Shown: positions 14,076-18,431 of the stretch, one piece after another
Position numbering within the stretch: the first letter of the stretch is position 1
Layout: each line of letters opens with the position of its first letter
IMG/VR virus record: IMGVR_UViG_2687453424_000001
DNA length: 64,000 nt
From: a virus
Lineage: Duplodnaviria > Heunggongvirae > Uroviricota > Caudoviricetes
Strand: one strand, 5' to 3'
Notes under the pieces: model-generated
Told to the model about the DNA's origin: nothing
The model's database searches: none
Seen by the model: only the letters and a program-made list of their open reading frames with translations
Program-made: the position numbers and the translations under genes

Positions 14076-17000
14076 TTATATCTCAGCCTCACTTTTAAGA
14101 ATTTGAGTTATATTTGAATTATGACCTGTCATCTTTTGTCTGTGATAGGTAGAAACAGCTGTAGTGTAAGAAAGACATGGGATAAAGGGAATAAAATAGG
14201 AGAAAGGATTAAGACAGAAAGTAAAAATGTTAAATCAGATTCTTTGGTTAATCAGGTCCAAAGTTAGTTAAACAATAAATTCATATAGGGAGTCTTTGGC
14301 TGGAAATTCCATATTTAGACCGTTAATAGTATGTAGAAAGCATAAAATTCAATCACATACAGGTTTACATCTAATTTGGAGCAGAGTCAGCCTCAGGGGT
14401 CTGAATTTTCTTATTATTTGTTTAATAATGTTTATTACACAAAAAAAAGTCATTAATAGTAAGCATTAAAATCAGAAGAAAAACTCGATGGATTGGTCAA
14501 AAGGTCAGGTAACATATGTTTATACAAAGTCCAAAGAAGCAAAGAATGCATTTCTTCTTGGCATTGCAGTGTCATTAACAAAGTCAAAATCTTGCAGAGA
14601 GCCCTCTCACTGCTGTTACAGGGCAGATGTAAAGGAGGAACTTGTTGATCTGCGCTTAGCATTTTCTAAAGTTGGAAACACTTTCGGACCATTTGAGGTC
14701 TTGTACTATTCACGTCTCAAAATAATGATCTTTCATACGCAGAGTGTGATTTCCTGCTTACAGGGATGGCAGATGCAAAAGTATTTCAACAGCTTGTGGA
14801 AGTAGTTAGAACTGAAACATGCACCAAATGGAGTTTTACTGAGACAGTACCATTCACCGAAGACTGGGTGGGAAGATAGTATAACAGCTGCAATTCATGC
14901 AATGAGGAGGCTTACTATGAGCTATAGCCAAAATCTTTAAAAGAGAAACAAGGAAATTTTGCACTTAGAAATACAATTTTGTTTGAGTTTTTTTGCTTTT
15001 GATAAATTTTTCAAACTAGTATCAAAACTGATGTTCTCTGTTCTTCATAATGTGTAGTACAGAAACCCTAATTTCACTATGGCATGATTCTTTCACTTAA
15101 TATAGTTTTATTCTATTCGCTACATCACTTATGTGGAGCTGTTTTCACATTGTCAGACTGTATTGTTCGTCTCTACTATAATTCATATTATTTTAATATT
15201 CTGTATTTGTCCAGTGCTATTAAAATGCTTTTAACTTTCTGAGACAACATTTTTTGGCAAAGTGTGGCAATTTGAAATTATCAAAACAAACAATTCAGTA
15301 TTTCTGATTCTAGGCCTCCAGAAGGTGATTCAACCTGTTCTAAAACAGGTGTCGCAGAGAGTTGTGATAAATCTGCTAGAGGTGCCCATTCCCCTGCACT
15401 GATTGGGAACTGTGTTTTTAGGCAACTAGTCTAGACTTTGGCAAAAAATTTAGATGTCTGAAGTGGGACAAGAATCCCATCCAAAATGGACCCAAATTCA
15501 GAGATTAACACTGCAAATAAGGGACTCTTAAGTAGTTACAATTAGTGCACCACTCATGAGATAAGTTTAGGTTTGAATAAATGGTCTGAAGGGAGGGTTA
15601 TTTTTGTATATGTTATCTTAAAGTTTCTTGGTAGGGTTTCTTTCATTTGTTTCCTTGATGTATTCTTTTCTTGTATTCCTTTTGTAGGCTTGTAGATTAT
15701 AAAATCTAAAAACACTGGCTTCCCTCAACCCATGTTTGCATCGCTTCTGAATTTGGCCATGTGAGTCAACTAATTACTTAAATCCAATCTATTGTCTGAC
15801 CTGCAGCAAGCAGAGTAAATAATCCTTGTTAGCTGATGAGGATGCTAGTTTTCCTTCTTGCAGGATGCTCTCTAGGACTGGATTATGTTCTAAAAAGTAA
15901 ACAAAGTCATGGGGACACTAGCCTTAGACAAACACTCTTTCTGATCAGTTACTCTCTTCCCAGGAGCCACATGAAATAGATGTCATTTTTCTTGAGCTGT
16001 AAAAACTAAATACCCTCAGCCTTGTTCTCTGGTTTCCTTTCTGACTATTCAGTAAACTACTCTCTGAGAGTATAATTGGGACCTCTGATGCTATGTTATA
16101 CTCCAAAGAGTTACAGCAAGAAGCAAACTTGTGATTTGTAGTGTTCTGCACCCAGACTTCATTATGCTATGGTCAGACTAAGACAGCAAAACTTGGGGGT
16201 TTTACCAGTTATTTTCTTACCTTGCTAAGACTCTTGAGATGTTTGAGCTCTTCTGAATTAAATAAAAGATTCCTGCTGGTCCTGGTGACTCATCCCTGGA
16301 GAACAATCCCCCCTGCCTTTTCACATGAGCAAAACTGCACAGCTCCATACTTCACAGAAGTTTGAACACTTACCTCAGGACACCACTAAAATATTCTCCT
16401 TGACTCAGCTGTGCTATCAGCAGTCTATGCTTCATAAGCAGAATACATCCAAGATTTTATGTGGTTTGGCTGAGAACACCCAGGGAAAGCAGGAAACTCC
16501 TTTTATCTGTATTTTAACCAATGTGAACTGAAACAGAAAAGTTGAAGCTTCTCTATACAGTGAAAGCAGACATACAGTCATCTTTCTTCAGACCCATCCC
16601 TGAGCCAGGCATGGTCCCAAAGCCATACAGCTGCATCCAAGTAGCTGGGAGCTACTAACTGAGAGGAGGATGTGTCTGGTTAAGTGGCTGGTGTCCTGGC
16701 TGCCAGATTGCAGCTGTGTCATGGCCCTCAGGGACAAAATACAGTCAGAGAAAGGCCTTGACTGCCTGCTCTTGGTTTGACAGCATGCCCATCTGGGATT
16801 TCCAAACACCCAGGCAGTCTGTGGAGGACCTGGGACTCTGGCAAGCCTTGTTCTTTGGCAAGTAACAGTATGCCTGTGTGTGCTGATTGAAAGTCTAGGG
16901 ACTGTATGTTATTGCTCAGCAGCCAGCTCTGTGAGTTGTTGCAGCGTGCATTTCTGAAAGATGTCCTATAAAACAGCTATTCTGTAAATGCCCTGATTTA

Positions 17001-17186
17001 TTCTTGAAAGCTATTAAAGAGACAGTAGTGTCAGATGGGTCAAAGCTTCCATTTAACTAAGAGGACGTTGTTGCGTATTGATTTTGGTTGTTCACCATAT
17101 GACTGATAATACCGTCTTTATGGTTTTAAAATCAAGGTGTAAGTTCGTTTTTGTTCATGGTTGATTATCTTCTTTTGCGTTGAAAA

Positions 17187-18431
17187 GTGTTTTGTTCACT
17201 TGCTAATGCGTACATATTGAGTACAGAATACATTATAAACTTGTGTACAGGATATAAAGCATTGGCACTGAGTGACACCAAACTACGAGGCCTATACGGA
17301 AAACCCTACTCTGGCCCTGCTGAAATCACCGATGGTGACGGGTTAAGTGTGCGGATTACTCCAGCAGGAACTATCACGTTTCAGTACCGTTATCGCTGGA
17401 ATGGTAAGCCAGTACGTCTTACTGTCGGGCGCTATCCGTCCACTTCACTGAAGGACGCACGTGTTATCGTCGGTGAGATGCGCGCATTGTACATGAAGGG
17501 AGTTAACCCTAAAAATTATTTTGCCCCCAGTGATGGCGAATTGACATTAAAAGAATGCCTGGATCAGTGGTGGGATAAGTATGTTAGCGGCCTGAAACCC
17601 AATACTCAGACGCTTTATAGATCTGTTGTGTACAACACTATGTACACACAGTTTGAAGACTCGCCAGTTGCCGGTATCCCTGTATCGGCTTGGGCTCGCT
17701 TTTTTGACAAGCAAGAAAGCCTCAACAAGAAAAAGGCTCGTGTTCTGTTGTTACAACTGCGTTCAGTTATTAACTGGTGTATCAGCCGCCAGTTAATCCC
17801 ATCATGCGAATTACTCAAACTTAGTGTAAAGAATATTGGGAAGAAACCAGATGTGGGGAGTCGCGTACTTACCTATACGGAACTGGCAAAGATCTGGCTG
17901 ACACTGGAGAACTCAAAAGTGGTTACTTCCAACAAGCTGTTACATCAATTGCTATTGCTATGGGGGGCCAGGCTTTCTGAGCTACGTCTCGCTACAGCCA
18001 GTGAGTTCAACATGGAAGATCTGGTCTGGACAACCCCTAAAGAGCATTCAAAGATGGGTAATATTATCCGGCGTCCGATATTTACTCAGGTTGAGCCTTA
18101 TATTGAGCGATTGCTTAATATCGGATTTGATGTGCTGTTCCCTGGGCAGGAAATAGATAAACCTATTGACCGTTCGTCTGCTAATTTGTACATGAAAAAA
18201 CTCAGGGCGAAAATTGATATTCCTGAATGGAGAACGCATGATTTTAGGCGTTCTCTGGTAACGAATTTATCTGGGGAAGGAATTATGCCCCACGTCACTG
18301 AAAAAATGCTGGGGCATGAACTGGGAGGAGTGATGGCCGTGTATAATAAACACGACTGGTTGTCGGAACAGAAAGATGCGTATGAGTTGTATGCTGATAA
18401 AATTTTCTGGCACGCTAAACAGCTCGGTTAA
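17187..18431 (+). CDS. int: Phage tyrosine integrase (P4/lambda-type); true start probably the in-frame TTG near 17262
   Basis: 414-aa ORF; C-terminal catalytic region …HDFRRSLVTNLS…MLGHELGGVMAVYNKHDW… typical of tyrosine recombinases; N-terminal …ALSDTKLRGLYGKPYSG…GLSVRI resembles P4-type integrase N-terminus. Confidence 0.85.
   Translation: MFCSLANAYILSTEYIINLCTGYKALALSDTKLRGLYGKPYSGPAEITDGDGLSVRITPAGTITFQYRYRWNGKPVRLTVGRYPSTSLKDARVIVGEMRALYMKGVNPKNYFAPSDGELTLKECLDQWWDKYVSGLKPNTQTLYRSVVYNTMYTQFEDSPVAGIPVSAWARFFDKQESLNKKKARVLLLQLRSVINWCISRQLIPSCELLKLSVKNIGKKPDVGSRVLTYTELAKIWLTLENSKVVTSNKLLHQLLLLWGARLSELRLATASEFNMEDLVWTTPKEHSKMGNIIRRPIFTQVEPYIERLLNIGFDVLFPGQEIDKPIDRSSANLYMKKLRAKIDIPEWRTHDFRRSLVTNLSGEGIMPHVTEKMLGHELGGVMAVYNKHDWLSEQKDAYELYADKIFWHAKQLG

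Follow-up and report, generated by a model that had tools for sequence, protein, structure and literature searches.

The window analysed here is a stretch of 64,000 nucleotides (nt) from the virus record IMGVR_UViG_2687453424_000001 (Caudoviricetes), in which avian genomic DNA on the left meets the Shiga toxin (Stx) phage phi24B, in prophage form, on the right. The point of contact lies inside the attachment (att) core of the phage and on a HindIII site, and it is very probably an artefact of the deposited bacterial assembly, an avian scaffold having been abutted to the end of the prophage scaffold. The features on which this reading depends are as follows.

1..17047, no strand assigned: avian genomic DNA, foreign to the Escherichia coli record, with CpG depletion, few open reading frames (ORFs) and CR1 fragments
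2354..2914, plus strand: C-terminal fragment of ORF2 of a CR1 long interspersed nuclear element (LINE; tblastn up to 91% identity, E 3e-92)
7023..7337, plus strand: second CR1 fragment, from the reverse-transcriptase region (best 78% identity, E 3e-15)
17043..17048, no strand assigned: HindIII site AAGCTT straddling the break, AAGCT being bird and the final T fitting either side
17048..17066, minus strand: att crossover core, 19 of the 24 bp of TTATATCCATTTAACTAAGAGGAC, the first 19 nt of the tRNA-Arg(CCU) gene argW; the tRNA is truncated
17048..64000, plus strand: prophage phi24B, an engineered derivative with a marker in stx2A (HM208303.1 22-46869), extending past the window end
17262..18431, plus strand: int, a P4-type tyrosine integrase with a TTG start (Pfam Phage_integrase and Arm-DNA-bind_3; HM208303 annotation)
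39111..39138, plus strand: pUC-type polylinker CCCGGGGATCCTCTAGAGTCGACCTGCA at the stx2A allelic-exchange site, annotated in HM208303 (interrupted Stx2A)

Homology places the bird-to-phage break precisely at 17047/17048, within the interval of 16990-17270 where an initial annotation of the window had noticed an abrupt junction. In megablast searches with window 16000-19000, 371 of 5,426 complete RefSeq E. coli genomes and 198 of 50,697 phage records matched, and the matches listed in both sets all begin at 17048, with none reaching into the bird side; the bird part is covered by none of the 5,426 E. coli genomes. Across the junction the window reads ...GGGTCAAAGCT/TCCATTTAACTAAGAGGACG (the slash marks the break), whereas at that point in the alignment both the phage and natural lysogens have ...TTATA/TCCATTTAACTAAGAGGACG. 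Two of the checks proposed together with the initial annotation bear on the break. Compositional segmentation does see the switch but puts it at ~17285 instead of 17047/17048, since the attP arm is AT-rich, like bird DNA. Separate BLAST of the flanks tells them apart: the right flank is 100% identical to E. coli Stx prophages and phage phi24B, the left flank returns bird CR1 proteins, and no E. coli match was found for 16900-17060 at E<=10, a search that covers matches of ~20 nt or longer. A short E. coli secondary attB was also considered as the source of the bases to the left of 17048, and it was rejected on the same null result.

The HindIII site near the transition is present as first described, but it occupies 17043-17048, three bases to the left of the coordinates originally assigned to it (17046..17051). 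The parent phage and E. coli sequence at the break, TTATA/TCC (TATATCC, or TTATA/TCCATT in longer form), is devoid of such a site. When anchored at the junction, the bird flank agrees with the attP and attL flanks at 12 of 40 bases, which is the level expected by chance; the bird flank therefore has no homology to these flanks, false overlap is not the cause of the join, and the look of a secondary attB is absent. AAGCT occurs in the bird DNA of the window at a frequency of 1.6e-3 per position, and a random break in the 57,677-bp phage would fall in the att core with a chance of ~25/57,677, or ~4e-4, so that a chance origin of the two together, the att-core position and the AAGCT end, is unlikely. 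The junction sequence is free of N's, and a 35-mer spanning it has zero matches in IMG/VR, GTDB genomes and JGI metagenomes. Two ORFs from the bird side, looked up by exact sequence, gave no record. A literature search for phi24B in bird assemblies found nothing relevant.

On integration, phages of this family duplicate the 24-bp core (LC727904 repeat_region 46-69), and a 24-bp crossover site of phi24B has been described (PMC7581858). The break lies 5 bp inside this core: AAGCT stands in place of TTATA, and both the 3' part of argW and the host flank are missing. ARAGORN detects no tRNA at the window junction and a complete tRNA-Arg(CCU) in a natural lysogen; the full 24-bp core and the intact tRNA-Arg(CCU) that identify a genuine phi24B attL are thus not found in the window. 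The initial annotation had stated that there was no host flank and no attL context, which holds for argW, the host flank and the first 5 bp of the core, but not for the other 19 of the 24 core bp, retained at 17048-17066; it overlooked the position of the break within the att core of the phage. Such a position in the crossover core is one of the features expected of insertion at a secondary site.

Several observations bear on the att site itself. The phi24B core (in the region of 17048-17071) corresponds to nt 1-24 of argW, the 5' end of the gene, unlike the 3' end that tRNA-targeting phages usually duplicate, and the two arms of the argW D-stem, a short inverted repeat (TTA...TAA), flank a spacer of 8 nt, TATCCATT. 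A 2020 paper on phi24B recombination mentions neither tRNA, argW nor intS (PMC7581858). The argW remnant at attL is the same in all the natural lysogens that encode the identical integrase, CP034213.1 and JAOQLB010000001.1 among them, but the left neighbours differ (a dsdC-type LysR regulator, a major facilitator superfamily transporter, or an IntS-like integrase), which makes the att site constant and its surroundings strain-variable.

The origin of the window was traced by an exact-protein look-up of the integrase, which returned 10 genomic places. In nine of these the normal argW flank and the full core are kept, and the remaining one, LN877770.1, has the bird flank of the window. To the left of the junction LN877770.1 is identical to the window at 60/60 bases, 21,170 nt of it are identical to window 7262-28431, and the same break is present at LN877770.1 3187194/3187193, the counterpart of 17047..17048; among the assemblies searched, the junction is confined to this one, as contamination or an assembly artefact would have it. 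By sequence identity, the window is shown to be the reverse strand of LN877770.1 (GCA_001405275.1; 5,027,063 bp) at 3140241-3204240. The assembly is that of an E. coli K-12 MC1061(phi24B) lysogen: Newbler was run on reads of an 8-kb mate-pair library (454 GS-FLX Titanium), and RAST supplied the annotation. The assembly was published as "5,027,118 bp in 15 scaffolds" under BioProject PRJEB9491, with the prophage placed "between bp 3129539 and 3186979" (PMC4651098). The int start codon lies at LN877770.1 3186979, which is exactly the published prophage boundary (PMC4651098). The lysogen carried phi24B::Kan, and no avian clone is described for the strain (PMC4651098).

The length of the record offers a measure of how much else it may contain. 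Subtracting 4,641,652 bp for MG1655 and 57,677 bp for the phage from 5,027,063 bp leaves ~328 kb unaccounted for. MC1061 carries deletions compared with MG1655, which raises the actual excess somewhat above ~328 kb, and LN877770.1 possibly holds several hundred kb of foreign DNA, ~0.33-0.38 Mb by this size arithmetic. LN877770.1 is absent from the RefSeq complete-genome set that was searched, and rough coordinate arithmetic suggests that it may start near oriC/rrnC of K-12. The phage end lies ~10.8 kb past the window. Toward this attR end, an exact-match look-up of the 2807-aa tail protein gave the phage record only, and the proteins returned by a homology search there include none from the 5.03-Mb LN877770.1.

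The avian nature of the left block is apparent from both its composition and its repeats. Window 1-16000 has a GC content of 0.32-0.47 and a CpG observed/expected ratio of 0.14-0.20, and from 18 kb on this ratio is ~1.0; ORFs of at least 100 aa number 6 in the left 17 kb, compared with dense ORFs to the right of the junction. Both CR1 fragments are homologous to bird CR1 ORF2, having been mapped by tblastn of 120 bird CR1 proteins against the window, with 81 high-scoring segment pairs landing in 7023-7337; Pfam models gave zero significant matches for these short pieces. The ORF at 2423-2866 has ~8000 homologues, and those listed are all from birds and named reverse transcriptase or pol, including kea (Nestor notabilis; up to 90% identity), other parrots, turaco, crane and stork. 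The peak of CR1 identity in parrots (kea 90%) may reflect which bird genomes have annotated CR1 ORFs. The first description of this side as AT-rich, gene-poor DNA with avian CR1 elements is thus upheld. In LN877770.1 the block runs at least 2,043 nt past the window start (3204241-3206283), with a CpG ratio of 0.20 and no N, and the total avian stretch there is at least 19 kb and gap-free. The last ~480 nt of 3204241-3206283 look like the end of an avian long terminal repeat or endogenous retrovirus (ctgtcgtggtttaagcc...), and in the ~19 kb of bird DNA RAST called a single ORF, of 47 aa.

The right block, initially read as densely coding enterobacterial phage DNA that starts with an integrase gene, proved to be just that: it is phi24B from 17048, with int at 17262-18431. 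A base-by-base comparison with HM208303.1 gave 0 mismatches in 45,636 bases, and the two are collinear by BLAST. This collinear identity and the synthetic polylinker identify an engineered phi24B (Traversvirus tv24B); it is a laboratory phage of the Liverpool group and not a wild prophage of Shiga toxin-producing E. coli. The polylinker has the order SmaI-BamHI-XbaI-SalI-PstI and is fused to the first ~64 nt of stx2A.

The strain itself has no bird DNA, which makes the avian block a contaminant, and it is the avian DNA that contaminates the bacterial record, not the reverse. Chimerism or contamination, rather than biological integration, had been suspected from the start, a suspicion borne out by a junction that occurs only in LN877770.1, from a strain without bird DNA. 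The suggestion that a vertebrate assembly had been contaminated pointed in the wrong direction, as it is the E. coli MC1061(phi24B) record LN877770.1 that holds at least 19 kb of avian DNA.

How the two blocks came to touch may be envisaged as follows. The avian DNA would have come from another sample in the same sequencing run or pool, and was probably cloned DNA such as bacterial artificial chromosomes (BACs); a low-complexity source of this kind is likely because at least 19 kb of gap-free sequence is more than trace contamination from a ~1-Gb genome would give. The 15 scaffolds would then have been strung without spacers into one 5,027,063-bp record, since that single record holds nearly the whole of the published 15-scaffold total. 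The abutment itself we infer: the junction would be the touching point of two scaffold ends. The prophage scaffold might break in the att core where reads diverge among integrated attL, circles of excised attP and perhaps secondary sites, and the avian scaffold might end in AAGCT(T) where the HindIII cloning site marks the end of an insert. If these are contig or scaffold ends, then both the att core and AAGCT are expected at the break. No recombination between phage and bird DNA would have taken place in any cell.

Several facts sit awkwardly with a simple abutment of scaffolds. The bird block lies in the middle of the record (at 3.19 of 5.03 Mb), directly after the prophage, which is unusual for appended contaminants, and a size-sorted order does not fit unless the avian scaffold was the second largest. 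The record falls 55 bp short of the length that was published (5,027,063 vs 5,027,118). Both ends are ~5 nt off their ideal points, the phage contig ending 5 bp within the core instead of at its edge and the avian contig retaining AAGCT instead of ending before the site. Finally, no vector sequence is visible in the window, and the proposed BAC origin rests on the coverage argument and the HindIII end.

Among the alternatives, a chimeric DNA molecule from library construction, in which fragments of pooled avian and lysogen DNA were ligated to each other before the adaptors were added and Newbler built a contig across the join, survives best and is nonetheless unlikely. An end in ...AAGCT has the appearance of a filled-in HindIII 5' overhang, and the junction is free of N's, whereas Newbler gaps elsewhere in the window are runs of N. 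The mate-pair protocol does include steps of end-polishing and ligation, and the library was sheared, not restriction-digested (PMC4651098). Sheared ends, however, are random, so that an att core (~4e-4) and a HindIII half-site (~1.6e-3) would not be expected together, and neither the circularisation linker nor an adaptor is present at the junction.

Far less credible is a hybrid attL, formed by a promiscuous phi24B integrase that joined attP to avian DNA on a clone, such as a bird BAC, carried in E. coli. The break does lie inside the 24-bp crossover core, within the 8-nt spacer of the TTA...TAA repeat of the argW D-stem, and phi24B Int has been reported at several unrelated sites (PMC7581858). 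If the event were real, the break 5 bp into the core would be the point of strand exchange, and the integrase would target eukaryotic sequence unlike attB. The sequenced strain, however, was plain MC1061(phi24B) with no avian clone described, so that no avian target is placed in the same cell as the phage; the bird flank resembles the attB and attP arms no better than chance (the 12/40 bases given above); and 93 bp of the primary attB supported recombination, whereas 62 bp did not (PMC7581858).

Equally hard to credit is a restriction-ligation chimera, in which bird and phage DNA, each as a HindIII fragment, were joined in a library. AAGCTT does fall exactly on the junction, and a cloning chimera had been among the explanations offered from the outset. 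Such a join would need the site in both parents, and the parent TTATA/TCCATT (TATATCC) has none, so that the explanation fails; AAGCTT is more likely the end of a cloned avian insert. Moreover, in every one of the records listed, out of 371 from E. coli and 198 from phages, the match begins at the same base, and the library was sheared, not digested (PMC4651098). As for a vertebrate assembly contaminated by enterobacterial phage, or truly carrying it through horizontal transfer, which the window alone might suggest with its 17 kb of bird DNA beside 47 kb of phage, this least probable of the readings is refuted by the 5.03-Mb E. coli K-12 lysogen record to which the window belongs, by the agreement of the published prophage coordinates, and by the synthetic polylinker in the phage.

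Read as an abutment of scaffolds, the junction resembles known contamination of public records and mis-joins of pseudomolecules (animal DNA in bacterial records, for instance, or bacterial or phage DNA in animal assemblies), in which two unrelated taxa meet at an abrupt switch in composition and the junction is seen in one assembly alone; the 454 run and assembly of the source study, which date from the era of pooling, also fit this pattern. It differs from the usual cases in that vertebrate DNA lies inside a 'complete' bacterial chromosome record, and in that the join falls at an att core and a HindIII site, thereby mimicking an integration or cloning junction. With a genuine attL of phi24B or other Stx phages at argW it shares the P' arm, int, xis and 19 of the 24 core bases; unlike it, TTATA, the 3' part of argW and the host flank are replaced by avian DNA, and no tRNA is detectable. 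In K-12 the primary attB of phi24B lies ~236 bp upstream of intS. Insertions of IS1, IS10 or Tn elements of E. coli into eukaryotic BAC or cosmid inserts while the clones are propagated offer another parallel, as bacterial mobile DNA is found there in vertebrate sequence with the junction at a recombination site, but here the source is the genome project of a bacterial lysogen, not a clone.

There is no new biology in this junction: the observation is real, its break is precisely located, and it is an artefact. Its practical value lies in database curation of LN877770.1, which is presented as the chromosome of an E. coli K-12 lysogen. The avian DNA in this record can lead to false claims of a 'phage in vertebrate' or of a 'vertebrate gene in bacterium'; k-mer classifiers and the mapping of reads can also suffer from it. 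More generally, an artefact can imitate a junction of site-specific integration because contigs naturally break at att and cloning sites.

Three further features of the prophage were recorded, the last two being scaffold gaps.

18415..18597, minus strand: xis (excisionase; HM208303 1389-1571, shift +17026)
39139..39842, no strand assigned: scaffold gap of 704 N over the resistance-marker cassette, which is 786 bp in the ::Cat reference
45199..45811, no strand assigned: scaffold gap of 613 N over the 5' part of bor and intergenic DNA, 426 bp in the reference

The gap lengths are unlike those of the reference (704/786 and 613/426), and they therefore fit mate-pair estimates and not length-preserving masks. 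The bor gap falls within 615 bp that match K-12 DLP12 borD, and also lambda, at 98% identity and exceed the length of a 454 read, and a 306-bp repeat shared with DLP12 exoD was assembled through with no gap. The right edge of each gap is the first base at which the phage and the other sequence differ. At the first gap, the left contig ends at CTGCA, one base before the PstI site is complete. The cassette hidden there is probably aph3, given that the lysogen was ::Kan and the reference is ::Cat. A long homopolymer tail beside PstI in a pUC4K-type kanamycin cassette is a candidate for what could stop 454 reads exactly at CTGCA. Other explanations of the N runs were discarded: screening for lambda or vector sequence, as a 3.7-kb lambda-like segment is intact; a cat gene in common with a BAC vector, proposed for the first gap and abandoned since the lysogen was ::Kan; and de Bruijn k-mer arithmetic on the gap edges, dropped for its inconsistent k (29 vs 39).

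Upstream of stx, at 38705-38956, the phage carries three tRNAs, read by ARAGORN as Met(CAT), Arg(TCG) and Arg(TCT) and annotated in HM208303 as Ile(AUA), Arg(CGN) and Ser(AGY), the last of which looks wrong. The lambda-like segment mentioned above is the exo-bet-gam-kil-cIII-ssb block (HM208303 3687-7385; window 20713-24411), which over its 3.7 kb is 97.5% identical to lambda, a case of ordinary lambdoid mosaicism.

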